Assembly (NCBI GenBank): GCA_900019385.1 | Contig: FIZJ01000007.1 | Span: forward strand, 2,796-66,795 | DNA length: 64,000 nt | Direction: 5' to 3' | DNA from: an uncultured Clostridia bacterium | GTDB taxonomy: Bacteria > Bacillota > Limnochordia > Darwinibacteriales > DTU012 | Shown here: positions 5,310-39,444 of the stretch, one piece after another | Layout: each line of letters opens with the position of its first letter | Position numbering within the stretch: the stretch's first letter is position 1 | Made by a program: the position numbers and the translations under genes | The notes under the pieces: generated by a model | Database searches by the model: none | Told to the model about the DNA's origin: nothing | The model's input: only the letters and a program-made list of their open reading frames with translations

Positions 5310-6230
5310 CTAGTAATTTCTGACAATAAGTTCCGAAATCAAGCCTCTTCCACGTCCATTGCAGTTTATGCTTCGCTTTGCGCGGACACGGTCAATAGTG
5401 AAACCTTGATAAAGACTGTCAAGAAAACTATCGTCAGCGTTTACCGCCTTTGGATCAGAATTGCTGAGCAGAAGCAGCGCTCCTATCTCGTCCAATTCTC
5501 GGAAATAGTGGGCTAGGCGAATCTGATCATCGTCTGTGAAATCATCCTTATTGTAGGTAGTGAAGCTGGCGGTTTTTGTCAGCGGACGGTAAGGCGGATC
5601 GAAATACCCTAAAGTTCCGGGGCCGATATAGGGCCTGGAACAGGTAAAATCGCCGCAGACCAGCTTGACGCCTGCCAATGCTCTGCTCACTGCTCTTATG
5701 TTGTCGGCATCACAGATTTTCGGCTTTTTATACCTGCCGTGGGGGACGTTGAACTCACCCTTGTGATTTTGACGAAACAAGCCGTTATAACAAGTCTTGT
5801 TTAGGAAAATCATATAGCTGGCCCGCACAATCCAGTCTTCGTTAAAAGACTGATAGTCAAATTGGTTCATCTGCTGGTTATATTGTTCCCGTATACCATA
5901 ATAAAACACTCGGCGCGCCTGGGAGCCCAATGCCAGATAGTCTCTTTCAAGCTTGCTCAAACACGCAATCAAAGCATCCGGTTCTTGCTGGACAACCTTA
6001 TAACCAAGTATCAATTCTCTGTTGATGTCAACCAAACAGGCATTTTCAATGACAAACATGCTCTTCAAATGAAAGAAAAAAGCTCCACCACCGATAAAGG
6101 GCTCCACATAGGTTTTGATTACGCCTGATTCTTTGATTTCACGCGGTAGACGGGCAGTCAACTCACGCAGCAGTTGGGTTTTACCTCCTGCCCACTTAAG
6201 AAAGGGTTTTGCCTGCACCGGTTTGTTCAC
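5310..6230 (-). CDS. dam: Dam-type (D12 class, alpha group) DNA N6-adenine methyltransferase, orphan
   Basis: 306-aa ORF with FLKWAGGK (AdoMet-binding motif I) and DPPY (motif IV) in alpha-group order. The gene is about 40% GC against about 60% flanking. Strong GGAGGAAGGGGGG ribosome-binding site. No restriction endonuclease nearby. Confidence 0.85.
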   Translation of the reverse strand: MNKPVQAKPFLKWAGGKTQLLRELTARLPREIKESGVIKTYVEPFIGGGAFFFHLKSMFVIENACLVDINRELILGYKVVQQEPDALIACLSKLERDYLALGSQARRVFYYGIREQYNQQMNQFDYQSFNEDWIVRASYMIFLNKTCYNGLFRQNHKGEFNVPHGRYKKPKICDADNIRAVSRALAGVKLVCGDFTCSRPYIGPGTLGYFDPPYRPLTKTASFTTYNKDDFTDDDQIRLAHYFRELDEIGALLLLSNSDPKAVNADDSFLDSLYQGFTIDRVRAKRSINCNGRGRGLISELIVRNY

Positions 6231-6371: not shown

Positions 6372-6416
6372 CGACATAAATAAAACCGCCCTGCGGCCTT
6401 GCGTCGAGGGCGGTTC
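6372..6416 (-). terminator. Rho-independent terminator of the AraC-corrinoid operon (minus strand)
   Basis: AACCGCCCT…AGGGCGGTT stem followed on the minus strand by TTTTATTTAT. Confidence 0.6.
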
Positions 6417-6426
6417 ATCAATTGTT

Positions 6427-7068
6427 TCACGCCATACTGGCACAGGCTTGAACAGCCACTTCCGCGGCGGACGCGGCATCAGGCGCGTAAAGGTCAGCGC
6501 CGATGCTGGCGCGGAATTGGTCGGTGACCGGCGCGCCGCCGATCATGATCTTGACCTTGTCTCTGATTCCCGCTGTTTTGGCGGCCTCCACGATCAGCTT
6601 CATTTCGTTCATGGTGGTTGTCAACAGCGCCGAACAGGCAATAATCTGCGCCTGCTCCTGAACAGCTGTCTCGATAAACTTCTCAACCGGCACATCAATA
6701 CCGAGGTCGATCACTTCGAGGCCTTTGCCTTCCATCATCATCCGCACCAGATTCTTGCCGATGTCATGGAGATCGCCCTTCACGGTGCCCAAGACCACTT
6801 TGCCTTTTGCCTTGACATCGTCCGAGACCAGCAGAGGCTTCAAAAGGGCGGTCCCGGCGTTCATGGCTCTAGCGGCAATCAGGACTTCCGGGACAAAAAT
6901 CTCGTTGTTTTTAAACTTGACACCGACAACGTCCATGCCGGCCATCAGGCCTTTTTCCAGAATCTCCTGGGCTGAAAACCCTTCGTCGATTGCCTGCTGC
7001 ACCAGTTCTTTGACAGCGCTGGCGTTTCCCTGCTGCAGTTTTAGGGAAATCTCATTCAGGATGCTCAT
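6427..7068 (-). CDS. Corrinoid (cobalamin-binding) protein, MtaC/MtbC-like: helical cap plus B12-binding Rossmann domain
   Basis: 213-aa ORF with the DxHxxG cobalamin-ligand motif (GDLHDIGKN) and the downstream glycine-rich MIGGAPV motif. GGAGGG ribosome-binding site. Co-oriented with, and 24 bp downstream of, the AraC gene. Confidence 0.8.
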   Translation of the reverse strand: MSILNEISLKLQQGNASAVKELVQQAIDEGFSAQEILEKGLMAGMDVVGVKFKNNEIFVPEVLIAARAMNAGTALLKPLLVSDDVKAKGKVVLGTVKGDLHDIGKNLVRMMMEGKGLEVIDLGIDVPVEKFIETAVQEQAQIIACSALLTTTMNEMKLIVEAAKTAGIRDKVKIMIGGAPVTDQFRASIGADLYAPDAASAAEVAVQACASMA

Positions 7069-7092
7069 CGTATACCCTCCAATACCAGTGTT

Positions 7093-8322
7093 TTATTTAA
7101 TCTGACCGCGTGTTTCCCTGAACTTGCCTGGAGTGGTTCCGGTCATTTTTTTGAACACCCGTGTGAAATAACTTTGGTCCTCAAACCCTACCAGGCTTGA
7201 TACGTCCGCCAGAGGGATAGCTTCGTTCACCAGCAGGTTTTTGCTCTTCTCGATCCGCACAGTGTTGAGATATGTGGTGAAATTGTAACCTGTTTCTTCC
7301 TTGAACAGCCTGCTGAAATAAGCCGGGCTTAAATGGACGTAGCTGGCTGCATCCTCGAGGGTTAGCCTTTCCATGTAGTTGTTGTTGGTGAATTCAATCG
7401 CCTTATATATTATATCCTTGTTTTTGACATTCTTAAAGTTAAACACACAGTCGGTGAAGCGGGTCAGGATTCTGGAGAGCCAGACGCTCAGCTCCTCAAT
7501 GTTGTGCAGGCGAGACACTTGGTTGAGGTATTGGTTGTTCAGACCGAAGATCTCTTCCTGTTCCGCCCCGCCTTCCATTGCCGCCCGGGAAAGAAGGACC
7601 ACAAGTTCCAACGACCGGTATTTTATATCCTCGAAGTCGTTTTGGCCGGTAAAAAACACGTAGCCCAGGATCTCGTTGAGCACTCGCAGGGATCCGGCTT
7701 TGTCGCCCACGGCCACATGTGAGATCAGCTCATTTTCCTTGTCGATTGGGTAATTCTTGTGTCTCGCCCCACCAAGGTAGGTTTGGGGATCGGAAGCGGG
7801 TATGGGGCTGTCCATAGGATCCGGCAAATGCCGTTTGTCATCTGCGGCTGCGTATCCGGCGAGCAGGTACAACAGTTCAGACAAGCTCGTAACCACATCA
7901 GGCTTGATTACCGGTATCTGATCCATGTGCGCTCTAAGCCGCCGCCGCGCTTTTTGATCCGGGATCTGCTGCTCGATGATTTCATCCAGCAGAAAGGCTT
8001 CCGGTTCTATCATCATCACCGGGCCGCCGACAAAAGCGCCCTTGAACTCCTCGCCGCGGTTGATGGGCGCCACCCAGTGAGTAAGCCCCATCGGGCAGAA
8101 GTAGATGTACCTGCCCCCAAACCGCTCCGCCTGATAACTGCCGTACAAATGGACGTTCGCACAATCGCACAAGTGGGCGAAACCATCCTGGACAGCTTCG
8201 CAGAACGGGCTGCAGCTTTTGAGGGCATGGTAGACAACGGACCCGGCGCCGTCGATAATGAAGCTGGAAACTCCCGTCGCCTTGCTGTAATGATCGATCC
8301 ACTGCCTGATCTCTTGAATCAT
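7093..8322 (-). CDS. AraC-family transcriptional regulator with an N-terminal PocR-type ligand-sensing domain
   Basis: 409-aa ORF. The C-terminal AraC helix-turn-helix pair is recognisable (…LEDAASYVHLSPAYFSRLFKEETG…IPLADVSSLVGFEDQSYFTRVFKKMTGTTP). The N-terminal ~200 aa resemble the PocR sensory domain. Confidence 0.75.
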   Translation of the reverse strand: MIQEIRQWIDHYSKATGVSSFIIDGAGSVVYHALKSCSPFCEAVQDGFAHLCDCANVHLYGSYQAERFGGRYIYFCPMGLTHWVAPINRGEEFKGAFVGGPVMMIEPEAFLLDEIIEQQIPDQKARRRLRAHMDQIPVIKPDVVTSLSELLYLLAGYAAADDKRHLPDPMDSPIPASDPQTYLGGARHKNYPIDKENELISHVAVGDKAGSLRVLNEILGYVFFTGQNDFEDIKYRSLELVVLLSRAAMEGGAEQEEIFGLNNQYLNQVSRLHNIEELSVWLSRILTRFTDCVFNFKNVKNKDIIYKAIEFTNNNYMERLTLEDAASYVHLSPAYFSRLFKEETGYNFTTYLNTVRIEKSKNLLVNEAIPLADVSSLVGFEDQSYFTRVFKKMTGTTPGKFRETRGQIK

Positions 8323-8462
8323 GTGCCCGCCCTTCCTTACCTTTCGGTTATATTCTAAACGATCCTGGAACCGGGATCAATGCGGCCGTGGAAAAAGTGC
8401 AGGGGAAAGGCGCCTTCGAGTAGAATAGACAAACAGGAACAAACCATGAGAGGGGAGACGCT

Positions 8463-9767
8463 ATGGGTTTCAAGCTTCGAGTTGGATTACTGGCAGTATT
8501 ATTGATATTGACATGTTCGCAGTTGGCAGGTGCGCAGTACAGCATTCCTCTCACTTCGCAGCGGGCATTCGAGGTTGCGGACAATATCATCGCCTGGCAG
8601 ACCGAGGCTGGTGGGTGGACCAAGAATACTGACTTCTCAAAGGTCATATACCAGCCGGGCATGTCCAGAGGAGAGCGGGCCATAAACGGCCAGGAAGCCG
8701 GGTGCTTCGACAACAATGCCAGCATCAACGAAATGAAGTTTCTAGCCATGATGTACGCACGGCACGGAATCGAGAAGTATCGGGACGCCGTCATCAAAGG
8801 CATCGACTGGATGCTGGACGCCCAGTACCCAAGCGGTGGCTGGCCGCAGTATTATCCGCTCATCGGCGGTTACCATGACAACGTGACCTTCAATGACGGC
8901 GCCATGATGAATGTGCTCAATTATATACAGGAGATCCTGAGGTACCGCGGGCTGTACGAGTTCTTGGGCGAAGAGCGCTTTGCCCGCCTGGAAGCCGCTT
9001 TGGAAAAAGGCATCGACTATATTCTCAAATCCCAGATCCGAGTCAACGGTTACCTCACAGCCTGGTGCCAGCAGCATGATCCAGTTACGTACGAACCGAA
9101 AATGGGGCGGAGCTATGAGCATCCGTCCATCGTCTCGGCGGAATCGGTCCCGATTGTGGAATTTTTGATGGCTCTGCCCGATCCGTCGGAAGAAGTGCGC
9201 CGGGCGATTGTGGGCGCGGTGGAGTGGTTTGAAATTTCCCAGCTGCCGAACGGCCAGTGGGCACGCTTTTACGATATTCAGTCCAATGTCCCGATCTTTT
9301 CGGGGCGGGACGGGATTATCCGCTATGACGTGAAAGACATCGAACTGGAGCGGCAGCAGGGTTACAGCTGGTTCAACGGCAGCGGCGGCAATCTATTGTC
9401 CAAGGCCCGGCGTGATGGGTACATTGACACGCTGCGGCAAAGCCTGCCCGATTACAAACCCCTCACCATCGATGTCTTCGCTGATCCGGCCGTTCCCAGG
9501 GTCATAAGCCCCAAGATCTGGCCCACTCAGACTGTAAGCGGCGTTCTCGCCGTCGAGGTCGAGATCTCCATGCGCAATCCGGAAAACCTGCGGGAAGTGG
9601 CCATCAAGATCAACAATCAAGAAATCTACCGCGGCAGCGATCTCCACATCCAGGTGCCGGTCGACACCACCGCGTTCCGCAATGGAACTTGCACCATCGC
9701 TGTAGAGACCACGACCACACTCGGGACATCCCTGTCCCACTACGTCAATTTCATTGTGGCAAATTAA
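8463..9767 (+). CDS. Secreted pectate lyase, PL10 family (PelA/Pel-15E type), with an extra C-terminal beta domain
   Basis: 434-aa ORF with a signal peptide (MGFKLRVGLLAVLLILTCSQLAGAQ). Motifs AWQTEAGGWTKN and YPSGGWPQYY are typical of (alpha/alpha)3-barrel PL10 lyases. Confidence 0.7.
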   Translation: MGFKLRVGLLAVLLILTCSQLAGAQYSIPLTSQRAFEVADNIIAWQTEAGGWTKNTDFSKVIYQPGMSRGERAINGQEAGCFDNNASINEMKFLAMMYARHGIEKYRDAVIKGIDWMLDAQYPSGGWPQYYPLIGGYHDNVTFNDGAMMNVLNYIQEILRYRGLYEFLGEERFARLEAALEKGIDYILKSQIRVNGYLTAWCQQHDPVTYEPKMGRSYEHPSIVSAESVPIVEFLMALPDPSEEVRRAIVGAVEWFEISQLPNGQWARFYDIQSNVPIFSGRDGIIRYDVKDIELERQQGYSWFNGSGGNLLSKARRDGYIDTLRQSLPDYKPLTIDVFADPAVPRVISPKIWPTQTVSGVLAVEVEISMRNPENLREVAIKINNQEIYRGSDLHIQVPVDTTAFRNGTCTIAVETTTTLGTSLSHYVNFIVAN

Positions 9768-9780
9768 AACCAGACAACAA

Positions 9781-9825
9781 GGCCAACTTCAAGCCCTGTG
9801 GACTTGCAAGTTGGCCTTTCTTTTT
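9781..9825. terminator. Bidirectional rho-independent terminator between the convergent PL10 and URO-D genes
   Basis: GGCCAACTT-gap-AAGTTGGCC hairpin followed by TTTCTTTTT. It overlaps the stop codon of the minus-strand gene. Confidence 0.6.
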
Positions 9826-10909
9826 ACACCGGCTCTTTCACGGCTTCAAACAGCGCCTCGATATTCGCCGGATCCACATCGGGAAGAATCGCTTCATGGC
9901 TCGGCGAGATAATCAGGCCAGTGGGGAAGATGCGTTTCAACTCCTGCACCTTGTCTTTGACCTGCTTAGGGGTGCCGTTGATCAAGAGCCACTGGGCGTC
10001 CACACCGCCGCAGAAAGAGACTTTGTCGCCGAAATCCCGCTTCAATCTCTCCGGTTCCATGTCTTTGGCCAAGGCCTGAATAGGATGGATGACATCGACG
10101 CCTGCGGCAATCAGATCGGGAATGACGGGATAGATTGATCCACAGGAATGATAAATAACCTTCAACCCGTAACTCTTGGCCTGTTCAATGAATTTCCTGG
10201 TACCCGGCATGACAAATTCCCGTATCGCATCCGGAGAGACCATCAATCCCCGCTGGCTGCCGAAGTCATTGCCGATCAGAATGGCGTCCAGCTTGCCTTT
10301 GGTGGCGCTGTAGAAGATCTCGTTGGCTTCAAGGTAGAACTGGGTGATGCGGTCGATTACAGCCCGGAACATTTCCGGCTCGGTCAGCATCTTCACCAGA
10401 GCGGTTTCCATGCCGAAGGCCGAACAGGCGTCTTGAAAGTGCGCCGACCACAAAACGCCCATGATTGGGTGGCCTGGCGGCGCGGCCTCCACCGCTCGGC
10501 GGCATCGGTCCGGATCAATATGTTTCGCCGGATCGGGCCAGTCGAAGTCATCAACGCGGCTGGGATCGGAATAGTCTTCAAAGAAGCCGGGCGCAGTCAG
10601 AGTCCTTTGATCGGGTGTGTTAGCCTTTTTGGCAAACTGAAGGGCGGTGTAAATCGCCTTGCTGTCGGGGGCGTCATAGGGGATCTCCACCGGATAGATG
10701 TCGTCCCCGATCTTTAGTTTCAGCTCGTCGATATCGCCGACGTCGAAATAGGCAAAGAGCCGTTCGCAGGCTTCCGGCACAGGCAGGCCAAGCCAAGACG
10801 CGGGCCTGTCCACCGGCCTTCTTTCCACTGTGGCGAAAAAACGTTCCTTAGGATCCATGGCATTCTTCCTTTCTCGCAGCAAATACCGGTCACTGAATTG
10901 ATTCACCAT
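9824..10909 (-). CDS. Uroporphyrinogen decarboxylase (URO-D)/MtaA-like family methyltransferase
   Basis: 361-aa ORF. N-terminal KERFFATVERRPVDRP and the HSCG motif (IYHSCGSIYPVIPDLIAAGVDVIHP) are characteristic of URO-D/MtaA/CmuA-family proteins. Confidence 0.72.
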   Translation of the reverse strand: MVNQFSDRYLLRERKNAMDPKERFFATVERRPVDRPASWLGLPVPEACERLFAYFDVGDIDELKLKIGDDIYPVEIPYDAPDSKAIYTALQFAKKANTPDQRTLTAPGFFEDYSDPSRVDDFDWPDPAKHIDPDRCRRAVEAAPPGHPIMGVLWSAHFQDACSAFGMETALVKMLTEPEMFRAVIDRITQFYLEANEIFYSATKGKLDAILIGNDFGSQRGLMVSPDAIREFVMPGTRKFIEQAKSYGLKVIYHSCGSIYPVIPDLIAAGVDVIHPIQALAKDMEPERLKRDFGDKVSFCGGVDAQWLLINGTPKQVKDKVQELKRIFPTGLIISPSHEAILPDVDPANIEALFEAVKEPV

Positions 10910-11015: not shown

Positions 11016-13226
11016 ATGATGATCGAGATGGTAAAAGTGGAAGCTGGTTCCTTTAAAATGGGCGGAGGCGATCTGAAAGACAGGCCCGACGCGCTCCCGG
11101 TGCATACGGTCACCATCACCAGGGATTTCTGGATCGCCAGGGAACCGATCAAATACGAACTCTTCGCCAGGTTTTGCCGCGAAGAGCTGGGAACTGAACC
11201 CGACGCCGAAAACTTATTGGGATATGTGGTCGGGATCAGCTGGCACGACGCAGACCGGTTCTGCGCCTGGCTCAGCGCCAAGACAGGACTGCCTTACCGC
11301 CTGCCTACCGAGGCGGAATGGGAGTACTGCGCCAGAAACAGCCGGCGCTTCGGGATTGACCGGATGTGTGACATGAATATCAGAGAATGGTGTTTTGACT
11401 GGTATGACGCATATAGTCCCGAAGAGCAGGCCGATCCGGCAGGTCCTGATTCAGGCATGTTCAAGGTTGTCCGGGGCGGCTTCCTGGACAACCCGGCCAA
11501 GTTCAACGCCTACTATTTGGATGTCTGGGCCAGGGGGTCGCTGCCGCCGCATTACCGGCATTTCCCGGGAGACCCCAACGATTTCGGCCGGCACAATGTG
11601 GGCTTTAGGGTTGTGCAGGCAGAGCCGGTGCAGACCAACGGGAAAAACGTTGTCATACCCCTGTCCCTCCATGTCCGGCAGCACCGTCCCCGGACTGAGA
11701 TCACTACCGAAAAGCCCTACTTTAGAAAGCGCCGTTTGTTTCCAATCCCGCCGGATACGGCCAGTCCCGAGGCTGTCAGGGCTTTTGGGCTAAATCCGCT
11801 TCTGCGCCACCACAACCATTCACCTGGGTTCGATGTGGCGCCGAATGGCGATTTGATTGTCTCAATCTATTCGTCCTACCACGAGTATGATCCGGAAGTG
11901 GGGCTGATGGGCGCAAGGCTGCGATATGGCGCCGATGAGTGGGAAATGCCGGATATCTGGCTGAACGCTGTGGGGGTCAACGACCACGCCCCTTTGCTTT
12001 TTACCGACCGCGACGGCACAATCTATCATTTCTGGGGATGGCCCCAATTAGACAATGCCTTTCCGTTTCAGTTCGTCTACTCCAAAGACAGCGGTGCCAC
12101 CTGGAGCCCGGTCCAGTTCCCGAAGTTCGCGGATCGGGCGGAGAAAGTGGCCAGCCAGCCTATCAATACGGTGGTCCATGCCGAAGACGGCTGGTACTAT
12201 GTGCCCTGCGATGTCCAGGGCGAGTCTGCCTCGATTTTGTGGCGCTCCATAGATTTGATCAACTGGGAGGTGCCGCGGGGCAAGACTGCGGGAAGGCACA
12301 GCGCTGTGGTGGAGCTCAAGGACGGCCGGCTGCTGGCGATAGGCGGCAAAAACACCAGCATCTACGGATACATGCCGCAGGCCATCTCCACCGATAAAGG
12401 CGACAGTTGGACAGTGAGCAAGACGCCGTTTCCGGCCATGAGCTCAGGCCAGCGCCCCTGTGTGATCCGGCTGCAGAGCGGAAGACTACTTTACTGCGGT
12501 GATTTTCAGAATAAGCAGGGTAACAGGCCGCCGGGCGCCGCCGAGGATCAATGGGGTTCGTTCGTCGCCTACTCGGAAGATGAAGGCGCGACCTGGAAGA
12601 TCAAAAAGCTGTGGGGCACTCAGCACAAGAAACAGGATCCGGCTCAATTGGGCGGAGCCCATACGCTGGGCTACAGCGTATGCCGGCAGTCGCCGGACGG
12701 GCTGATCCATGTCATCACCTCCAACAACCGGCCCTGCCTGCATCTTTGCTTCAACGAAGCGTGGCTCCTGGCCGACACCGACGGCATATGCCCGAGTGAC
12801 GAGGAACTGATGCGCGAGGACACGGTGGAAATCTCCAATGTCACAACTTATCAGGAGCGCTACGCCGACGGCGGCGTCAAATGTGTCTATTCCGGCGGCA
12901 CTGCTCCCGACGGGCGCTTCCTGCTCCACGGAGAAGAAAAATGGTATTATCCGTCGGGTGAATTGATGACTGAGGCGCGGTACCAGTTCGGCAGGCGCGT
13001 AGGCGCTTACACCCACTACAGCCCGGAAGGCCGCAAGATTTGGGAGTGGGAATACCTGGATGATCATGTTTCCCTCTACAAAACTTACTACACAAATGGC
13101 GGGCTCAGGACGGTAGGGCGTTACCGAAACCGAATCGCCGAAGGGTGGGCGGAACGATATGAGCCCGATGGGAAGCTGGCGGCCCGGGCTCTGTTTGAAA
13201 ACGGGGAGATCGTCAAGGTTGAATAG
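11016..13226 (+). CDS. Multidomain protein: FGE-sulfatase (SUMF1-type) domain + BNR/sialidase-like beta-propeller + MORN-like repeats
   Basis: 736-aa ORF. N-terminal ~200 aa carry formylglycine-generating-enzyme-family motifs (WCFDWY, RVVRGGFL, NVGFRVV). The middle has Asp-box/BNR repeats (SKDSGATW, SEDEGATW). The C-terminus has YwqK/MORN-type repeats. No signal peptide. Confidence 0.6.
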   Translation: MMIEMVKVEAGSFKMGGGDLKDRPDALPVHTVTITRDFWIAREPIKYELFARFCREELGTEPDAENLLGYVVGISWHDADRFCAWLSAKTGLPYRLPTEAEWEYCARNSRRFGIDRMCDMNIREWCFDWYDAYSPEEQADPAGPDSGMFKVVRGGFLDNPAKFNAYYLDVWARGSLPPHYRHFPGDPNDFGRHNVGFRVVQAEPVQTNGKNVVIPLSLHVRQHRPRTEITTEKPYFRKRRLFPIPPDTASPEAVRAFGLNPLLRHHNHSPGFDVAPNGDLIVSIYSSYHEYDPEVGLMGARLRYGADEWEMPDIWLNAVGVNDHAPLLFTDRDGTIYHFWGWPQLDNAFPFQFVYSKDSGATWSPVQFPKFADRAEKVASQPINTVVHAEDGWYYVPCDVQGESASILWRSIDLINWEVPRGKTAGRHSAVVELKDGRLLAIGGKNTSIYGYMPQAISTDKGDSWTVSKTPFPAMSSGQRPCVIRLQSGRLLYCGDFQNKQGNRPPGAAEDQWGSFVAYSEDEGATWKIKKLWGTQHKKQDPAQLGGAHTLGYSVCRQSPDGLIHVITSNNRPCLHLCFNEAWLLADTDGICPSDEELMREDTVEISNVTTYQERYADGGVKCVYSGGTAPDGRFLLHGEEKWYYPSGELMTEARYQFGRRVGAYTHYSPEGRKIWEWEYLDDHVSLYKTYYTNGGLRTVGRYRNRIAEGWAERYEPDGKLAARALFENGEIVKVE

Positions 13227-13294: not shown

Positions 13295-13350
13295 AAAGAT
13301 AGAGGCGCTCCTGATCAATACAAGATTATAGATTAGTTTGGAGGAATAGC

Positions 13351-14751
13351 ATGAAAAATGGTGTGATATTCGGCAACAGAAGCTTCTTTGCGGATGAGCT
13401 GTGTCTGGACGGGAGGAGGCGGCTGCTTGGAGTGCTGCAAGAGGCGGGTGTCACTCCTGTAATCCTGCCGGAAGACGTGGGAGCCTACGGGAGTGTGCAA
13501 AACCGGGAACAGGCCTTGAAGTGCGCCGCTTTGTTCAAGGAACACGATGATCTTAAGGGAGTGATCATATCCCTGCCCAACTTCGGCGATGAGAAATCCA
13601 TCGTCACCGTCCTTCGGGAAGCGAAAATCGATGTGCCGATTTTGGTCCATGCCTTCAACGACCACCTCGACAGACTCAACTATGAAAACCGCCGCGACAG
13701 TTTCTGCGGCAAAATCTCTGTCTGCAACAATCTGCGCCAATATGGGTTCAAGTTTACCCTGACCACCCTGCATACAGTAGATCCGGAAAGCCCTGTTTTC
13801 AAGCAGGACCTGCAGCGTTTTCTAGCTGTCTGCCGTGTTGTGGGCACGCTTAAGGGCGCTCGGATCGGGCTGGTGGGTGTAAGGCCCGCGGATTTCAACA
13901 CCGTCCGCTTCAGCGAAAAGATCCTGGAACACCACGGCATTTCTGTGGAACCAATCGGCCTGATTGATGTGATCGGCAAGATCGATGAGCTTGGCGACGC
14001 CGAAGCCCAACCGGCTGTGGAAGAAATCAAGGGTTACATGTCCACCGACAGTGTGCCGGAGGATGCCCTGGCGAAGATGGCCAAGCTTTTGGTTGTGCTG
14101 CGGGAGTGGGTCAGGGGCAATGATCTGCACGCAGTGGCCATCCAGTGCTGGGATTCGCTCCAGCGCTATCTGGGGATCAACTCCTGCGCTGTCATGAGCA
14201 TGCTTTCCCAAGCCGGTGTTCCGGCCGCTTGCGAAAGCGACGTCGCCGGCGCCGTCAGCATGCTGGCGCTGCAGGCGGCAAGCGGTATGCCCAGCGCTCT
14301 TGTCGACTGGAACAACAACTATGCCGATGATCCTGACCGTTTCGTCCTGTTCCACTGCGGCAACTTCGCCAAGGAGTTCTACGATTGCGCTTCCTGCCGG
14401 CCGGTGATCGATTACCCGCCGATTCTGGCCTCGACCCTGGGGCAGGAAAACACCTACGGTGCCATCGACGGCAGAATGAAGCCCGGCAAGGCAACCTTCG
14501 CCAGGATCACCACCGATGATCTCACTGGCACGATCCGGGCCTACTGTGCAGAAGGGCAGGTCACCGATGATTCTCTGGCCACTTTTGGTTCTTGGGGCGT
14601 GGTCAAGGTCCCGGGGCTGCAGAAACTGATGCGCTATATCTGTGAAAATGGGTTTGAACACCATGTGGCGATGAGTTTGGCCAGTGTGGCCGATGTCTTG
14701 GCGGAGGCATTGGGCAAGTACCTCGGCTGGGATGTCTATCATCACGCTTAG
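13351..14751 (+). CDS. L-fucose/L-arabinose isomerase-family sugar isomerase (FucI-like, about 470 aa type)
   Basis: 466-aa ORF with a GGAGG ribosome-binding site. It resembles the short FucI-like isomerase family. Its substrate cannot be assigned from sequence. Confidence 0.5.
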   Translation: MKNGVIFGNRSFFADELCLDGRRRLLGVLQEAGVTPVILPEDVGAYGSVQNREQALKCAALFKEHDDLKGVIISLPNFGDEKSIVTVLREAKIDVPILVHAFNDHLDRLNYENRRDSFCGKISVCNNLRQYGFKFTLTTLHTVDPESPVFKQDLQRFLAVCRVVGTLKGARIGLVGVRPADFNTVRFSEKILEHHGISVEPIGLIDVIGKIDELGDAEAQPAVEEIKGYMSTDSVPEDALAKMAKLLVVLREWVRGNDLHAVAIQCWDSLQRYLGINSCAVMSMLSQAGVPAACESDVAGAVSMLALQAASGMPSALVDWNNNYADDPDRFVLFHCGNFAKEFYDCASCRPVIDYPPILASTLGQENTYGAIDGRMKPGKATFARITTDDLTGTIRAYCAEGQVTDDSLATFGSWGVVKVPGLQKLMRYICENGFEHHVAMSLASVADVLAEALGKYLGWDVYHHA

Positions 14752-14765
14752 GCGGAGGGATTGGT

Positions 14766-15428
14766 GTGAAGAAACTGGTGGCGGTTTACACAGGGCAGGG
14801 GCTGGCGGAGCCTTTGGCGCGGTTGATCCAGGCTGAGCTGCCCAATGTCCAACTGGTGAATATTATCGATGACGGGCTGATTCATGATGTGATCAAAGCC
14901 AGTGGTGTGACCAAGCCCATCGCCAGGCGGCTGGTCAAGTACTATCAAATCGCGGCGGAGATCGGCGCCGATCTGATCTTAAACACTTGTTCGTCAGTGG
15001 GCGAAGTGGTTGAACTCGGCAGACAAATTGTGGATGTCCCGATTGTAAGAATTGATGAACCTATGGCCAGAGAGGCGGCGGCCAACTATCAAAGGATCGG
15101 AGTCATCGCCACTCTGCCGACGACACTAAGGCCTACAGCCAGGCTGGTCCAAGCTCAGGCTCACGCCATGGGCAGGGAAGTCACGATTGTGGACGGCCTT
15201 GCGGATGGGGCGTACCAGGCCTTGATCAGCGGCCGAGCAGAGGAGCATGACAAGCGGATCATGGATGTGGGGCGCAGCCTGGCCCAGAAAGTGGATTGCA
15301 TTGTCCTGGCCCAGGCTTCGATGATGAGGATGCAGCAAACCCTGGTAGAAGCGGCACAGCTTCCGGTCCTGTCAAGCCCGCCGTTGTGTGCGGCCTATCT
15401 TAAATCGCTGCTGGAGCGTGGCGGTTGA
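14766..15428 (+). CDS. Asp/Glu/hydantoin racemase-family protein (possible sugar epimerase/isomerase)
   Basis: 220-aa ORF with GTG start and a GGAGGGA ribosome-binding site. It has a two-Cys architecture (NTCSSVG…) like PF01177-type racemases. Confidence 0.45.
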   Translation: MKKLVAVYTGQGLAEPLARLIQAELPNVQLVNIIDDGLIHDVIKASGVTKPIARRLVKYYQIAAEIGADLILNTCSSVGEVVELGRQIVDVPIVRIDEPMAREAAANYQRIGVIATLPTTLRPTARLVQAQAHAMGREVTIVDGLADGAYQALISGRAEEHDKRIMDVGRSLAQKVDCIVLAQASMMRMQQTLVEAAQLPVLSSPPLCAAYLKSLLERGG

Positions 15429-16255
15429 TGCTGAGCCAAACTGTGAAAGAACTGGAGAAAACCGCGCGGCAGATCCGGCGCGACATTATCACCATGATTT
15501 ACCAGGCGGGGGATGGTCATCCCGGCCCGAGCTTGTCGTGCGCGGATCTGGTCACTGCGCTCTACTTCGCTGTCATGAATGTCGAACCGGCGGATCCGCA
15601 CTGGCCTCGGCGGGATCGCCTGATTCTCTCCAAAGGCCATGCATGTCCCGCGGTCTATGCCGCCTTGGCCAGAAAAGGCTACTTCGATGCCGCCGAGCTG
15701 CCCAGGCTGCGCAGTTTAGGCAGCATCCTCCAGGGACACCCTGATATGCTTAAGACGCCCGGGATTGATTTTAGCTCCGGCTCGCTGGGCAACGGGATCA
15801 GCGCCGGGCTGGGTATGGCTTTGGCCGCCAGAATCAGCGGGCTCGATTACCATACTTATGTTATTTGCGGTGACGGCGAGCTGCAGGAAGGTATAGTCTG
15901 GGAAGCGGCCATGGCTGCCAAACGCTATCAGGTTGGTAATTTAACCGTTCTGGTAGACTACAACGGTGTCCAAAGCGGGGGCCGGATCGAAGAGATCAGC
16001 GGTTTGGAGCCGCTTGTCCCCAAATGGGAAGCGTTCGGGTGGCACTGCCAGGAGATCGATGGCCATGACTTCACCGAGATCCTCACTGCCATTGCAGAGG
16101 CCAAAGCAGTGCCTGACAGGCCGTCGGTGATTGCGGCCCGCACCGTCAAAGGCAAAGGTGTCTCATTTATTGAAAACAACAATGCCTGGCACAAACGAGT
16201 GCCCACCAGAGAGGAATGGGAGCAGGCCATGAAAGAGTTGGGAGCTGAAGATTGA
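15428..16255 (+). CDS. Transketolase, N-terminal (TPP-binding) subunit of a split transketolase, copy 1
   Basis: GDGHPGPSLSCADL and SKGHACPAVYA motifs. The ATG overlaps the upstream stop (TGATG). Confidence 0.85.
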   Translation: MLSQTVKELEKTARQIRRDIITMIYQAGDGHPGPSLSCADLVTALYFAVMNVEPADPHWPRRDRLILSKGHACPAVYAALARKGYFDAAELPRLRSLGSILQGHPDMLKTPGIDFSSGSLGNGISAGLGMALAARISGLDYHTYVICGDGELQEGIVWEAAMAAKRYQVGNLTVLVDYNGVQSGGRIEEISGLEPLVPKWEAFGWHCQEIDGHDFTEILTAIAEAKAVPDRPSVIAARTVKGKGVSFIENNNAWHKRVPTREEWEQAMKELGAED

Positions 16256-17211
16256 TGCAGTACTCAAGCACCAGAGAGGCTTTTATCAACAGCCTGACTG
16301 AGCTCGCAGGCCGGAACCGGAAGATCGTCCTGGTCTGCGCCGATTCGGCGAAAGTGATCCGGGCCGATGGTTTTGCCGACCGGTTTCCCGAACGGTTCAT
16401 CGATGTAGGCATCGCAGAGCAGAATGCTGTGGCCTGCGCCTCCGGAATGGCGTCTTGCGGCCTTGTTCCTTTTGTCGCCACATATGCCGGGTTCATCACG
16501 ATGCGGGCCTGCGAACAAGTGCGGACTTTTGCGGCATATCCCAACCTCAACGTGAAGATGGTGGGGGCAAACGGCGGAATCGGCGCTGGAGAGCGTGAAG
16601 GTGTCACCCACCAGTTTTTCGAGGACTTGGGGATTCTCCGGACCATCCCCGGCGTCACCATCGTTGTTCCAGCCGATGCTTCCCAGGTGGGAAAAGCGGT
16701 GGAGGTGATCGCCGATATCCCGGGCCCAGCCTACATCCGAATCGGCAGCGGCCGCGATCCAGTCGTGTTTGACGAGGATCTCCCGTTTGAACTGGGTAAA
16801 ATCCGTATTCTTAAGGCGTACGGCGAGGATGTAGCCGTTTTTGTCAACGGGCACGCCATCCCCCGGGCCCTGGCGGCGGCAGAAGGCCTTAAGGCGCTTG
16901 GGATCAAGGCCATGGTGGTGGAAGTCCACACCCTCAAGCCTTTGGATTCGGAAGCCATCGCCGATGTGCTCAAGCTAACGGGAGCGGCAGTCACAGTCGA
17001 GGATCACAACATCATCGGCGGGCTGGGAAGCGCCGTTGCAGAGGTGATCGCCGAGCGCGCTCCGGTTCCCTTGTCCCGGATCGGGATAGAGGATCGGTTC
17101 CCCGAGTCCGGTGATGCGGAACAGCTCATGGACGCGTACGGATTAAGTGTTGATGATATTATGGATGCGTGCAGGCGCGCAGTGGGCAGAAAAGAAAGGA
17201 GATCATCATGA
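16255..17211 (+). CDS. Transketolase, C-terminal (pyrimidine-binding) subunit, copy 1
   Basis: Recognisable Pyr-binding and C-terminal transketolase domain sequence (…FIDVGIAEQNAV…). The start overlaps the upstream stop. Confidence 0.85.
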   Translation: MQYSSTREAFINSLTELAGRNRKIVLVCADSAKVIRADGFADRFPERFIDVGIAEQNAVACASGMASCGLVPFVATYAGFITMRACEQVRTFAAYPNLNVKMVGANGGIGAGEREGVTHQFFEDLGILRTIPGVTIVVPADASQVGKAVEVIADIPGPAYIRIGSGRDPVVFDEDLPFELGKIRILKAYGEDVAVFVNGHAIPRALAAAEGLKALGIKAMVVEVHTLKPLDSEAIADVLKLTGAAVTVEDHNIIGGLGSAVAEVIAERAPVPLSRIGIEDRFPESGDAEQLMDAYGLSVDDIMDACRRAVGRKERRSS

Positions 17212-18260
17212 GTCACGGCTACTTCCACAGGGTGGCCCGGCAAAGCCCCACCCGGCTTTGGATCAACAACCCCACTCAGGAGGAGGCCCGCAAAGCGATC
17301 GCCGCAGGAGCCATCAGCTGCACCACCAATCCTACATACACTGCCAAGATGCTCCAGGAAGAATCGGAAAAAGACGCTGTAATGGGCGTTATTGATCAAG
17401 TCACATCCACAGCCGGGGACGATGCCAAGGCGGCTTCGGAGATCCAGCGGCAGGTAATCAAGCCTTTGGTGGAAATTTTCTCTCCCCTTTACGCCAAAGA
17501 CCCGCATCAGGGTTTTGTCTCGATTCAAGGCGATCCTTACGCCGAGGATGACTATGCCAACATCGTCGAAGCAGCCTTGGCGGACCGGGCCTTGGGCGAA
17601 AATGTGATCGCCAAGATTCCGGTGACAGCGGCAGGGCTCAAGGCGATTGAACACTTGATTTGGGAAAATGTGCCGATTATCGCCACAGAGGTGATGGCCA
17701 TAAGCCAGGCCACAGCTGTGTGTGAACTGTACGAGCGCACCTGTGCAAGGACGGGCAGAAGGCCGCCGCTTTTTGTCACTCATATCACCGGGATTTTTGA
17801 CGAATACCTGCACAATCTGGCTTGTCAAGAAGAAATACCCATTGCCAAGGATATTCTATGGCAGGCTGGAACCATTGTGGCCCGCAAACAGTACAAACTG
17901 CTGAAAGAACGGGGATATCAAGTGACCATGCTCGGCGGTGGAGCCCGAGGCTTGCACCATTTCACCGAAATGGTCGGCGGCGACATCCATGTGACCATCA
18001 ACTGGCGGGGAGCCGCGGAGGAACTGGTGCGCCGGGATCCGCCGGTGGTCTACCGGATGGACACACCAATCCCTGACTACGCAGTCAACGAACTGCTGCG
18101 CATTCCCGTCTTCAGGATGGCTTTTGAGGAAGGCGGGCTGGCGGTGGAAGAGTTTGCCGATTACGGGCCTGTGCGCTATTTCCGCGATAGTTTCGAAGCT
18201 GGTTGGAGTGCTCTTTTGGAGGCGATTGCGGCACGGCGAAAAGAACAAGAAGGATCATGA
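17208..18260 (+). CDS. Transaldolase-family protein
   Basis: 350-aa ORF with an AAAGGAGA ribosome-binding site. SCTTNPT motif, as in the transaldolase/F6P-aldolase SxxT[ST]NP signature. Confidence 0.6.
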   Translation: MSHGYFHRVARQSPTRLWINNPTQEEARKAIAAGAISCTTNPTYTAKMLQEESEKDAVMGVIDQVTSTAGDDAKAASEIQRQVIKPLVEIFSPLYAKDPHQGFVSIQGDPYAEDDYANIVEAALADRALGENVIAKIPVTAAGLKAIEHLIWENVPIIATEVMAISQATAVCELYERTCARTGRRPPLFVTHITGIFDEYLHNLACQEEIPIAKDILWQAGTIVARKQYKLLKERGYQVTMLGGGARGLHHFTEMVGGDIHVTINWRGAAEELVRRDPPVVYRMDTPIPDYAVNELLRIPVFRMAFEEGGLAVEEFADYGPVRYFRDSFEAGWSALLEAIAARRKEQEGS

Positions 18261-18270
18261 AGGAGTGGGT

Positions 18271-18618
18271 ATGGCGATGGCCGAGAAAGAGTTTCACAAG
18301 CGTTTGCATGAAGAAAAGACAGTGGAGATGCTGCCGGGCGTTTTCCGCACCACTTTGGCGTACAATGGGGCGCTGATGCTGTGCCACTTTCACATGAAGA
18401 AGGGGGCCAAGATCCCTCTCCACAGCCATGAAGCGGCTCAAATCGGCTATGTGATCAAAGGGAAAGTGCGCTTTTTCACCAAGGATGGGCAGGATATCGT
18501 TGTCGAGCCCGGTTCCAGCTACGTCTTTGATTCCCGCCAAGAGCACGGCTCGGATGTGCTGGAGGATACAGAGCTGATCGAATGCTTCACCCCGATGCGG
18601 CCTGAGTACATTGTGTGA
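18271..18618 (+). CDS. Cupin-domain protein (possible sugar isomerase/epimerase)
   Basis: 115-aa ORF with a GGAGTGGG ribosome-binding site. His-rich two-motif cupin pattern (HSHEAAQIGYVIKG…EHG). Confidence 0.55.
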   Translation: MAMAEKEFHKRLHEEKTVEMLPGVFRTTLAYNGALMLCHFHMKKGAKIPLHSHEAAQIGYVIKGKVRFFTKDGQDIVVEPGSSYVFDSRQEHGSDVLEDTELIECFTPMRPEYIV

Positions 18619-18628
18619 GGTGCGTTTG

Positions 18629-19648
18629 ATGGAGATCAGCGTCACTGATGCGGCACAGAAGTATCTCACACCGTACAAGCTCGGGCGTCCGGTGTTGACA
18701 GGATCGGGACAAGCCGGAACTTTCGACGCTCTGGCTGTGGACTGTCCTTTTACCTTTTACCACAACGGTAGGTTTCACATGATGTATGTCGGGTTCGACG
18801 GGACTGGCTATCAGACGGGGCTGGCGGTGAGCGATGATCTGATCAGCTGGCGGCGCAAAGGGCCGATCCTGAAGCGGGATGATCATGTGGGCTGGGATCG
18901 GGTCGGCGCCGCAGGGACCTGGATTCTCAAGAGCACCAACTCCATATGGGATCTGCCCACGCTTAAAAAAGTGGATGGCAAATACTGGATGGTGTACCAT
19001 TCCTATCCCGAAGAGGGCTATGAGGCTGGCCCAGCCCAGATCGGCCTTGCCTGGAGCGAGGATCCGGAACTGATGGAGTGGCACCGTCTGCCTGAGCCGG
19101 TATTCTCCTGGAAGGATGGAGCGGACTGGGAGTGCGGCGGGCTGTACAAAGCCTGCCTGATTCAAGCGAACGGCCGCTATTATTTGTTTTACAACGCCAA
19201 AAACGCCAAGCCGAAAGGCTGGATTGAACAGATTGGAGTGGCGGAGTCCGGTGATCTGCTCAAGTGGCGGCGCTATGAGGGCAATCCCATCGTTAAAGTG
19301 TCGGAAGGCAGGTGGGACAGCCAGTTTTGCGCCGACCCGTATGTAGCCAGGGACGAAGATCGCTGGCTGATGTTCTACTACGGCTTCAACCGGCGGCATG
19401 CCCAGGACGGGATCGCCTTCTCAGACGATCTCTACAGCTGGGTCAAACACCCGGAGCCGATTTTGACCAACGGCCGAGAAGGGGAGATAGACCATTCTTA
19501 TGCCCACAAGCCGTCGGTTCTTTGCCATGACGGCGTTCTGTACCATTTTTACTGCGCCTGCCGCAAATACAGAGAAGGCGATCCGGTAAAAAGTCTCTGG
19601 GAGGAATTCCGGACCATCACCTTCGCTTCGTCTCGACCCATCGCCTAA
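18629..19648 (+). CDS. Five-bladed beta-propeller glycosidase/phosphorylase-like protein (GH130/DUF377- or GH43-like)
   Basis: 339-aa ORF. Repeated W/Y-rich blade motifs (…HMMYVGFDG…, …YWMVYHSY…, …YYLFYNAKN…, …WLMFYYGF…, …VLYHFYCAC…). No signal peptide. Confidence 0.4.
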   Translation: MEISVTDAAQKYLTPYKLGRPVLTGSGQAGTFDALAVDCPFTFYHNGRFHMMYVGFDGTGYQTGLAVSDDLISWRRKGPILKRDDHVGWDRVGAAGTWILKSTNSIWDLPTLKKVDGKYWMVYHSYPEEGYEAGPAQIGLAWSEDPELMEWHRLPEPVFSWKDGADWECGGLYKACLIQANGRYYLFYNAKNAKPKGWIEQIGVAESGDLLKWRRYEGNPIVKVSEGRWDSQFCADPYVARDEDRWLMFYYGFNRRHAQDGIAFSDDLYSWVKHPEPILTNGREGEIDHSYAHKPSVLCHDGVLYHFYCACRKYREGDPVKSLWEEFRTITFASSRPIA

Positions 19649-19670
19649 TATTTGTTTGTGAACGGAGGAA

Positions 19671-20507: not shown

Positions 20508-20509
20508 GT

Positions 20510-21454: not shown

Positions 21455-21468
21455 AAGGAGACAGAAGT

Positions 21469-37131: not shown

Positions 37132-37231
37132 GTAAGCAATTTAAGAATGAAACAAACGAACTGTTAAGTAAATTGTTTAGTTGTCTGTTTGGTCAGTGGC
37201 TGTCGACAGGTTTCGCCGAGGAGGACTCTTT

Positions 37232-39397: not shown

Positions 39398-39444
39398 TAC
39401 TTAGCGTCCGCGTTTCAGAAATTCTATTGCAGGGAGCGATCACC

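Follow-up and report, generated by a model that had tools for sequence, protein, structure and literature searches.

The locus described here lies in a 64,000-nt stretch of DNA from an uncultured Clostridia bacterium (GenBank assembly GCA_900019385.1, contig FIZJ01000007.1, positions 2,796 to 66,795). The whole stretch was analyzed and is called the window; positions are counted from its first letter. Within it, a short block of genes encodes a stand-alone corrinoid protein (CP1), a PocR-domain regulator of the AraC type, a pectate lyase, and UroA, a protein with the uroporphyrinogen decarboxylase (URO-D) fold. Two further URO-D-superfamily proteins, UroB and UroC, are encoded elsewhere in the window. 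These genes were examined as candidate parts of a corrinoid-dependent system that removes methyl groups from sugars of rhamnogalacturonan II (RG-II). Labels beginning with L denote loci, G genomes (G000 being the organism's own genome), and C contigs of the own genome, which is a 2.17 Mb assembly with 97.7% completeness. The features at issue were:

6382 to 6400, minus strand: terminator-like hairpin directly after the CP1 stop codon
6427 to 7068, minus strand: CP1, stand-alone corrinoid protein of the MtaC/MtgC type, 213 amino acids (aa); Pfam B12-binding_2 at 76 bits and B12-binding at 93.5 bits
7093 to 8322, minus strand: PocR-domain AraC-type regulator (MtaR-like), 409 aa; Pfam PocR at 86 bits plus HTH_18/AraC
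8323 to 8462, no strand: divergent intergenic region between the regulator and pectate lyase genes, with a promoter-like site for PocR-CP1 at 8380-8352 (minus strand) that matches the consensus
8463 to 9767, plus strand: Pec_lyase-family pectate lyase (PF09492, E 9e-95), which separates the regulator from UroA
9777 to 9799, minus strand: terminator-like hairpin directly after the UroA stop codon
9824 to 10858, minus strand: UroA, URO-D-fold and MtaA-like, a candidate O-methyl-sugar:corrinoid methyltransferase; Pfam URO-D at 93 bits over residues 133-359
23382 to 24497, plus strand: UroC, remote URO-D-fold protein in which H264-x-D266 replaces H-x-C; followed by OtnK-, PdxA-, and DHDPS-like genes
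50508 to 51653, plus strand: UroB, URO-D family, motif H-C-C; Pfam URO-D at 39 bits, weak but above the cut-off

The UroA reading frame extends to 10909, and its start is probably at 10858 because homologues are about 344 aa long. Promoter-like and terminator-like sites flank the PocR-CP1 pair; the counts of such sites were not above chance, and only their positions fit.

CP1 was composed of a four-helix cap and a Rossmann B12 domain, and carried the motif D99-x-H101-x-x-G104 within the sequence VKGDLHDIGKN. Its closest solved relative was a Moorella corrinoid protein (1y80, E 5e-61), followed by MttC, MtmC, MetH, and MtaC. In alignment A2 the residues D99, H101, G104, S146-x-L148, and G177-G178 were invariant. 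Altogether, the cap, the Rossmann domain, and the DxHxxG, SxL, and GG motifs of methyltransferase corrinoid proteins were all present in CP1. Among NCBIfam models, CP1 scored 228 bits with MtgC and 201.2 bits with pyl_corrinoid (TIGR02370), the latter slightly below the 215.3-bit cut-off of this curated subfamily model.

The regulator gene precedes CP1 on the same strand, with a gap of 24 nt between them. Its product was the only PocR-domain protein found in the own genome, where tblastn elsewhere matched the AraC part only. An N-terminal PocR domain followed by a C-terminal AraC helix-turn-helix is the architecture of MtaR of Eubacterium limosum, which activates the mta (methanol methyltransferase) operon (PMC13602510). 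As with MtaR, homologues of the regulator are encoded with corrinoid methyltransferase genes: PocR-AraC proteins 33-52% identical to it occurred within operons of RACo (the reductive activator), PocR, a corrinoid protein, and an MtaA-like gene. In genomes of the same order these operons ran in the sequence activation-like protein, RACo, PocR/AraC, corrinoid protein, MtaA-like protein, with PocR-AraC identities of 33-39%.

Relatives of CP1 were collected from 79 loci (63-91% identical) in Clostridia, Oscillospiraceae, Spirochaetes, and others. A PocR-AraC gene was nearby in 55 of the 79 loci, mostly directly upstream, and RACo was nearby in 34. URO-D-type genes were nearby in most of these loci, and a homocysteine methyltransferase in four. 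By gene order, a PocR-AraC gene followed by a corrinoid protein gene is a widespread and recurrent pair in corrinoid methyltransferase clusters. We hold with high confidence that CP1 and the regulator belong to a corrinoid methyltransferase system, as its methyl carrier and its regulator.

In four Clostridia metagenome-assembled genomes (MAGs; L065, L067, L069, and L105) the PocR-AraC/corrinoid pair stood alone among TyrRS, HIGH_NTase1, and RNase J genes. A short homocysteine methyltransferase was sometimes near such lone pairs in Clostridia MAGs. These lone pairs hint at a widespread use of the carrier resembling a split methionine synthase.

An alternative raised by the first-pass annotation, which was made from the sequence without database searches, was that CP1 and the regulator act as a B12- or light-sensing pair, a split form of CarH, controlling the glycan locus. 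CarH and AerR do use B12-binding domains for sensing, the two genes were read as co-transcribed, and no cobalamin riboswitch was found in the own genome. Against this, the CarH model gave CP1 only 28.5 bits (cut-off 400), compared with 228 bits for MtgC and 201 for the methyltransferase corrinoid model, and CP1 has no DNA-binding domain. RACo, needed only for catalytic Co(I) cycling, was near its relatives in 34 of 79 loci, as were URO-D-type methyltransferases, and the characterized homologue MtaR regulates a methyltransferase operon (PMC13602510). Given the recurrence of RACo/PocR/corrinoid protein operons, the likeness to MtaR, and the MtgC and CarH scores, a sensor pair is very improbable.

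Within the URO-D superfamily (Pfam PF01208, cut-off 23.9 bits), UroA was placed by its 93-bit match, UroB by its 39-bit match, and UroC by hhalign and fold. The N-terminal half of UroA was not matched by the URO-D model. UroA is not HemE, since it scored 21 bits with TIGR01464 compared with a cut-off of 303; MtaA models outscored the hemE model on UroA, and neither UroB nor UroC matched TIGR01464. The sole PDB sequence match of UroA was MtaA (4ay7), which was also the top fold match of its structural model (pLDDT 88). H237-x-C239 of UroA aligned to the H-x-C zinc motif of 4ay7, and the residues H237, C239, H258, C283, H321, and E322 were invariant in the UroA family.

The first-pass annotation had described a stand-alone corrinoid protein with the motif GDLHDIGKN, a co-oriented PocR-AraC regulator beside it, and three URO-D-family proteins, that at 23382-24497 being the more divergent. 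These identifications were upheld by the Pfam B12-binding_2 and B12-binding matches and the 1y80 similarity of CP1, by the PocR and HTH_18 matches and 24-nt spacing of the regulator, and by the placement of UroC, which had no Pfam match, as a remote superfamily member. Its caution that the URO-D proteins could be genuine HemE was settled in the negative by the HMM scores.

Orthologues of UroA that were 60-88% identical were found across Bacillota, Bacteroidota, Planctomycetota, Verrucomicrobiota, Spirochaetota, and other phyla. In total, UroA carriers represented about 699 genera (of about 36,000) in 29 phyla. In the organism's own class (95 genomes) UroA was essentially confined to one genus. 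The neighbors of UroA were RhaT/MFS transporters, the glycoside hydrolase (GH) families GH29, GH78, GH106, and GH138, and a Fucose_iso_C-family isomerase; the rhamnose-type mutarotase rhaM was present in 12 of 39 loci and GH29 in five. In Moduliflexus and Vecturithrix, UroA was found with monosaccharide ABC transporters and nothing else nearby. As judged from these neighbors, the evidence points to a free monosaccharide of the 6-deoxyhexose type as the substrate of UroA.

Several lineages carried UroA together with corrinoid methyltransferase genes, and these linked loci are informative and independent of each other. The Bacteroidia locus L014 contained genes for an MtaB-like protein, GH31, a UroC-like protein, UroA, rhaM, RhaT, and an SSF transporter, and then for a 292-aa homocysteine methyltransferase, a corrinoid protein, an activation-domain protein, GH141, and GH78. 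L142 contained UroA, rhaM, and RACo adjoining GH78. In L168 (5922-13162) rhaM, a monosaccharide ABC transporter, UroA, an MtaB-like protein, and a corrinoid protein formed a tight operon. L173 contained an activation-domain protein, a corrinoid protein, UroA, rhaM, and RhaT, and in L170 RACo followed UroA. In two further genomes the corrinoid protein lay in RG-II-type clusters on contigs that also carried UroA; the linked genes were GH141, an activation-domain protein, an MtaA-like protein, a corrinoid protein, a homocysteine methyltransferase, SSF, a UroC-like protein, and GH31 (L053), and GH143 followed further on by corrinoid protein-DHDPS-PdxA-OtnK and, beyond these, GH28 (L150).

Two of these loci held further genes. 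A 356-aa protein with no Pfam match was encoded after UroA-rhaM-RACo in L142 (11181-12251, plus strand) and may be a further component of the system. The L168 operon also occurred in the related metagenome contigs L167 and L174, with overlapping MtaB-like and corrinoid genes. The presence of an MtaB-family protein in a sugar operon was a surprise, and this protein may act as a second loader or set the methyl group free as methanol.

A stand-alone corrinoid protein was present in seven of seven checked UroA genomes outside the genus (G031, G032, G033, G098, G099, G138, and G162) and in the checked UroA genomes within it (G001, G003, and G004). In one Bacteroidia family, the genomes with the three closest orthologues of the locus corrinoid protein were exactly the three UroA carriers.

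The predicted complex of UroA and CP1 had an ipSAE of 0.69 (0.67, 0.69, and 0.70 in separate runs), compared with 0.01 for the best of three controls. Of 80 solved complexes, 58 attained the mark used for this score, as did 2 of 110 mismatched pairs. Each partner had a pLDDT of 85 or higher, and the runs agreed in at least 83% of their contacts. In the modeled interface, cap helix 55-67 and the H101 loop of CP1 lay against invariant UroA residues 201-208 at the mouth of the barrel. The model supports binding of UroA to CP1, with the qualification that it may draw on solved corrinoid-protein complexes. Taken together, gene linkage and this model are indirect evidence for methyl transfer from a substrate to Co(I) by a methyltransferase I, and we consider it likely that UroA works with a corrinoid protein.

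The MtaB-like genes of L014 and L168 bear on a second explanation, in which the methyl donor is methanol from pectin methyl esters and the URO-D-fold proteins are MtaA-type second methyltransferases that unload the methylated corrinoid protein. Pectin degradation releases methanol, the MtaB family comprises methanol:corrinoid methyltransferases and stood beside UroA and the corrinoid protein in both loci, and MtaA, the nearest solved relative of UroA, is a second-step enzyme. Against this, MtaB was not found in the 97.7% complete own genome, and L173 combined a corrinoid protein, UroA, the mutarotase, and the transporter without MtaB. No pectin methylesterase family turned up among the window proteins scanned, and UroA was tied to sugar transporters, mutarotase, and fucosidases and not to a common acceptor pathway. 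A methanol donor is therefore considered quite unlikely.

UroC had no Pfam or NCBIfam match. It was related to the UroA family by hhalign (probability 92%, E 5e-7), and its AlphaFold model (pLDDT 95) had only HemE and MtaA structures as top fold matches. The UroC family was larger than that of UroA (about 1,476 genera and 2,245 representative clusters), and in it H-x-D was invariant at the H-x-C position. In L014 and L053 a UroC orthologue (35% identical) adjoined GH31 and the module of corrinoid protein and homocysteine methyltransferase. Directly upstream of UroC, positions 21451-23367 (plus strand) encode a 638-aa protein with no Pfam match and no PDB relative, which was 65% identical to its counterpart in L153. 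The listed OtnK-like reading frame overlaps the end of UroC by 130 nt (24368-24497), and its true start is probably further downstream.

UroB follows a GH138 gene after 20 nt and is itself followed by genes for a GFO oxidoreductase and GH143. Its best NCBIfam match was MtaA at 25-29 bits, and orthologues 60-86% identical occurred in Clostridia and Planctomycetota. More distant UroB-like genes neighbored CP1 relatives. Of the three URO-D-fold proteins of the window, UroB is the least supported and has the weakest link to corrinoid genes.

A third explanation takes the URO-D-fold proteins as corrinoid-independent enzymes acting on the unusual sugars of RG-II (aceric acid, Dha, Kdo), for example as decarboxylases or other TIM-barrel sugar converters. 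The enzyme that founded the fold decarboxylates its substrate without a cofactor, most members of the family have no corrinoid gene nearby, UroC, UroE, and UroF carry H-x-D in place of H-x-C, and acid-sugar-type genes (OtnK, PdxA, and DHDPS families) follow UroC. These points are opposed by the hemE score of UroA (21 bits, cut-off 303) and its higher MtaA scores, by the failure of the URO-D model to match the N-terminal half of UroA, and by the operons with corrinoid protein, RACo, or MtaB together with the complex model. Corrinoid-independent action is also held to be quite improbable, to about the same degree as a methanol donor.

The remaining components were searched for in the own genome. 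Contig C49 encodes, in a row, a second corrinoid protein (CP2, 59% identical to CP1), UroD2, a MetH-activation-like protein with weak similarity to Met_synt_B12, and RACo. UroD2 is a full-length MtaA-like URO-D protein (181 bits) with a complete H-x-C...C motif; it scored 92-122 bits on MtaA/CmuA models, below their cut-offs. RACo (598 aa; Fer2, Raco_middle, and RACo_C_ter) supplies the reductive activator of a four-component system. Two further URO-D-like genes lay beside sugar ABC permeases (C18) and beside a GH35 gene (C21). Overall, the genome contained six URO-D-superfamily proteins, five of them in sugar loci. MtaB, MtrH, and MttB were not found; at 97.7% completeness their absence is likely, not proven. 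The six URO-D-superfamily proteins would thus be the only recognizable catalytic partners of both corrinoid proteins, besides a truncated MetH. A B12-binding match on C16 was rejected as a part of the system, being an unrelated B12-binding radical SAM protein (DUF4080).

The truncated MetH (454 aa) is encoded at C11:164142-165503 (L017:6140-7504, minus strand), with obg directly downstream. It comprises S-methyl_trans and the first half of Pterin_bind, with no B12 domain. Because half of the pterin domain and the whole B12 domain are missing, a methyl donor other than methyl-tetrahydrofolate is implied. Within the genus, MetH was a full 820-aa protein in G002, took the truncated form in G000 and G003, and was reduced to the homocysteine domain in G001. 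G002 lacks UroA, CP1, and PocR together, yet has the normal 820-aa MetH. Stand-alone homocysteine methyltransferases were present in L014 and L053, and near RACo in Moduliflexus. Since the state of MetH tracks the system in the genus and such stand-alone enzymes recur, the comparison suggests that the methylated corrinoid protein is unloaded onto homocysteine, although it covers few genomes and these are relatives of one another. The MtaA-type enzyme of C49 is an alternative outlet for the methyl group, and where an MtaB-like protein accompanies UroA, release as methanol is conceivable as a speculation.

The first-pass annotation had correctly reported that no RACo or pterin-binding methyltransferase is encoded in the window, and had suggested that they may be encoded elsewhere. 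This was confirmed for RACo on C49 and failed for the pterin-binding methyltransferase II of a four-component system, for which only the half domain on C11 was present. Homocysteine, via the truncated MetH, had not been foreseen and is the likelier acceptor in this genome, which has no complete pterin-binding enzyme.

The setting of these genes was expected to be a plant-glycan locus, and the carbohydrate-active enzymes (CAZymes) narrow this further: all three RG-II-specific families, GH138, GH143, and GH106, were present, and by its gene content the window is an RG-II locus specifically. Family-profile scans also found PL1, GH31, GH29, GH42, and GH2. The features that bear on the sugar setting were:

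13351 to 14751, plus strand: Fucose_iso_C-family sugar isomerase; the same family stands beside the Mahella UroA orthologue and beside the L053 corrinoid module
29827 to 32103, plus strand: GH31 of the alpha-xylosidase type; its orthologue adjoins a UroC-like gene in two other lineages
34116 to 35480, plus strand: GH29 alpha-L-fucosidase; GH29 neighbors UroA orthologues in five other loci
47765 to 50488, plus strand: homologue (907 aa) of the GH138 RG-II alpha-galacturonidase BPa0997 (6hzf, E 9e-203), an RG-II context marker
52780 to 54576, plus strand: BT_1020-like beta-propeller (GH143-type) with a sialidase-like CBM (PF24067, E 1e-95), an RG-II context marker

The catabolic genes of the window include two split transketolases with a transaldolase and the OtnK-, PdxA-, and DHDPS-like genes, a set that fits the expectation of apiose and acid-sugar catabolism. 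The block of UroA, pectate lyase, and PocR-CP1 was kept in G003 and G004, with different flanks in G004, and its conservation was confined to one genus.

The proposed mechanism builds on computed results: domain identities, folds, the other parts in the genome, gene linkage across phyla, and a complex model that passed its controls. The MtaR-like regulator would switch on itself and CP1, and CP1 would carry a cobamide in the base-off/His-on form. UroA, with its MtaA fold and conserved His-x-Cys...His/Glu metal site, would dock on CP1 and transfer the methyl group of an imported O-methyl 6-deoxyhexose to Co(I), the plain sugar then entering isomerase/kinase catabolism. The most likely UroA substrate would be 2-O-methyl-L-fucose of RG-II chain B. 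UroC is probably the equivalent for a second methyl sugar, 2-O-methyl-D-xylose being the best guess because of the link to GH31, and UroB may serve a third. The enzyme that unloads methyl-Co(III)-CP1 would be encoded outside the locus, and the best candidates for it are the truncated MetH of C11, which would yield methionine, and the MtaA-type enzyme of C49. Oxidized Co(II) would be rescued by the RACo and MetH-activation-like proteins of C49. We infer the direction of methyl transfer, the acceptor, and the sugar substrates, these last from gene context, and the assignment of 2-O-methyl-fucose to UroA and 2-O-methyl-xylose to UroC from neighboring genes is a guess. The whole model, in which a dispersed corrinoid-dependent methyl-transfer system takes its methyl groups from methylated RG-II sugars and has the block as its portion within the locus, is judged to stand slightly above an even chance.

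A number of observations weigh against this model, foremost the low general adjacency of UroA to corrinoid genes, the dispersal of the genes, family scores that stay below threshold, and the chemical challenge posed by an aliphatic ether. A neighbor census counted PF02310 (not RACo or MtaB) within 10 kb, by likeness band. For UroA, 9 of 189, 6 of 33, and 3 of 75 carriers had such a neighbor (the band below 20% had fewer than five carriers), and for UroC 6 of 93, 9 of 129, and 3 of 75 (fewer than five were tried in the band of 60% and above), compared with 6 of 300 random places. Corrinoid neighbors of UroA and UroC thus amounted to about 3-18% compared with a 2% background, an enrichment of only about threefold where tight linkage had been expected; linkage of UroA to a corrinoid gene is the exception, not the rule. 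Many UroA loci contained a transporter and a mutarotase only, and two UroB orthologue contexts that were inspected contained sugar genes and no corrinoid genes. The exact match in the Bacteroidia family is statistically weak as a co-occurrence, with a base rate of about 24 of 64 for a stand-alone corrinoid protein in that family. UroA scored 52.6 and 54.3 bits with the MtaA/CmuA models TIGR01463 and NF004889 (cut-offs 235 and 244), and the third zinc ligand of MtaA, a Cys, aligned with a His in UroA, at the invariant H321-E322. In the own genome, tblastn with Bacteroidia rhaM found no homologue, no complete pterin-binding methyltransferase II was found (the sole Pterin_bind match covers positions 7-117 of 244), and neither the cobalamin riboswitch RF00174 nor CobS was found. 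The organism, whose genome nevertheless encodes CP1, CP2, RACo, and a B12-binding radical SAM enzyme, is thus apparently incapable of synthesizing cobamides and probably takes them up complete. Among the 79 loci most CP1 relatives lay outside CAZyme loci. We know of no corrinoid methyltransferase that cleaves an aliphatic sugar methyl ether, and an alkoxide is a poorer leaving group than a phenolate.

Since some PocR-corrinoid pairs stand alone among housekeeping genes, CP1 is probably a general methyl carrier, with loading enzymes supplying the specificity. A further explanation is that CP1 and its regulator are the general carrier of a split, folate-independent methionine synthase with the truncated MetH of C11, that the adjacency of UroA is an accident of one genus, and that the URO-D-like proteins are sugar enzymes that do not use CP1 or methyltransferases of other specificity. 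The lone pairs in several Clostridia, the homocysteine methyltransferases near CP1 relatives in four of 79 loci, the truncation of MetH in G000 and G003, the low corrinoid adjacency of UroA and UroC across genera, and the conservation of the block in one genus only are all in its favor. It does not account for UroA orthologues directly beside a corrinoid protein, RACo, or an MtaB-like gene in at least five unrelated loci, for the complex model that passes its controls, or for the module of corrinoid protein and homocysteine methyltransferase inside RG-II-type loci of two other lineages; moreover, the own genome has no other recognizable loader for its corrinoid proteins. It also overlaps with the RG-II demethylation model, which already allows unloading of CP1 by the truncated MetH. 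We regard a carrier serving methionine synthesis without UroA as unlikely, though less so than a methanol donor. The interpretation in the first-pass annotation is supported in part. The corrinoid methyltransferase module that it proposed has good computational support from parts in the genome, recurrence of the PocR-corrinoid pair, the UroA operons, and the complex model; a corrinoid protein is not a regular neighbor of UroA or UroC.

Other features of the window were noted. Positions 15425-21454 (plus strand) contain two split-transketolase pairs around a transaldolase-like gene and a GH43/GH32-like propeller, adjoining the Fucose_iso_C-family isomerase and an Asp/Glu-racemase-family protein. 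The set probably forms a duplicated apiose (apulose-phosphate transketolase) route. A D12 (Dam-type) N6-adenine DNA methyltransferase (5310-6230, minus strand, E 3e-51) lies between GH106 and CP1 with no restriction partner visible. It was present at the same site in G003 and L152 and absent from G004 and L151, and by this comparison looks like a variable insertion. A gene at 11016-13226 (plus strand), divergent from UroA and conserved in the genus, encodes an unusual fusion of an FGE-sulfatase-like domain, a BNR_2 sialidase-like propeller, and a MORN repeat. Positions 37181-39397 (plus strand) encode an NHL/TPR/Yip1 membrane protein, followed by a 967-aa DUF5696 protein (39394-42297, plus strand; PF18952, E 9e-204; no PDB relative) and by ABC permeases. 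This trio moves as a unit in G004, where it adjoins UroA, and the DUF5696 protein may be a candidate RG-II enzyme.

The same DNA was present in anaerobic-digester metagenomes from several studies. At position 13316, in the intergenic region that precedes the isomerase gene, a 14-nt insertion (AATACAAGATTATA) relative to the window was present in contigs from three sequencing runs; it represents strain variation in a likely promoter region. Six metatranscriptome libraries also contained stretches of the window, in contigs covering 10-50 kb uninterrupted; they were rejected as evidence of expression because single pieces of this length may be carried-over DNA.

RG-II carries two methyl-ether sugars, and the RG-II enzyme set of Bacteroides thetaiotaomicron reportedly leaves a single bond uncut, one methyl-xylose linkage. 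To our knowledge the only known sugar O-demethylase requires oxygen. No prior report of a corrinoid- or cobalamin-dependent sugar demethylase, or of URO-D genes in RG-II or polysaccharide loci, was found in the open-access literature, which for 2-O-methyl-xylose in RG-II gave general reviews only. If the model is correct, it would account for the complete use of RG-II methyl sugars by strict anaerobes of digesters, guts, and sediments. Corrinoid methyltransferase chemistry, known for aryl ethers, methanol, and methylamines, would then include aliphatic sugar ethers as well, and methyl groups of plant glycans would feed methionine synthesis directly. RG-II use would depend on B12 and tie fiber degradation to vitamin B12 cross-feeding. 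A function would also be assigned to two very large groups that are annotated only as 'uroporphyrinogen decarboxylase family protein'.

From the spread of the families (UroA-type in about 700 and UroC-type in about 1,500 of 36,000 genera) a wider reading can be formed, in which anaerobes of many phyla strip methyl ethers from plant cell walls with URO-D-fold corrinoid methyltransferases and pass the methyl group to a free corrinoid protein and on to homocysteine, via a MetH without its folate and B12 modules. Besides the 2-O-methyl-fucose and 2-O-methyl-xylose of RG-II, this reading may extend to other methyl sugars, and lineages with an MtaB-like partner might release methanol instead. It is offered tentatively, with a likelihood somewhat short of even.

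Among the closest known systems is MtaB/MtaC/MtaA with MtaR of Eubacterium limosum (PMC13602510), where a PocR plus AraC activator likewise goes with an MtaC-type corrinoid protein. Shared features are also a URO-D-fold MtaA-like enzyme with the H-x-C motif, a reductive activator in the genome, and, in some lineages, an MtaB-like gene beside UroA. The system differs from MtaB/MtaC/MtaA in that the own genome lacks MtaB, the genes are scattered through sugar loci and do not form one operon, no Wood-Ljungdahl or CoM context was identified here, and a sugar methyl ether is the presumed donor. UroA itself differs from MtaA in scoring far below the family cut-offs and in having a His for the third Cys ligand.

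The aryl methyl-ether O-demethylases (Odm of Acetobacterium dehalogenans, Mtv of Moorella, and Dhaf_4610-4612 of Desulfitobacterium hafniense) consist of a methyltransferase I, a corrinoid protein, a methyltransferase II, and an activating enzyme. They cleave phenyl methyl ethers anaerobically by methyl transfer to Co(I), and a dedicated second enzyme passes the methyl group to tetrahydrofolate. The system described here differs in having no complete pterin-binding enzyme, a presumed aliphatic sugar ether, and dispersed parts. With MetH it shares the cap and B12 domains that CP1 resembles (1bmt, E 4e-30) as well as homocysteine-domain and MetH-activation-like proteins in the genome. In contrast to MetH, the modules are separate proteins, the pterin domain is half present, and the homocysteine protein has no B12 domain.

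The cytochrome P450 that demethylates 6-O-methyl-D-galactose in marine porphyran degraders is oxidative and needs O2. As in that system, the step of sugar O-demethylation would here be encoded inside a polysaccharide utilization locus; the protein family is unrelated, and the reaction would be independent of oxygen. What would be new is the substrate class, together with the genomic setting, the corrinoid methyl-transfer machinery itself being familiar, and the proposed route is a credible candidate for the oxygen-free removal of methyl-ether groups from plant sugars.

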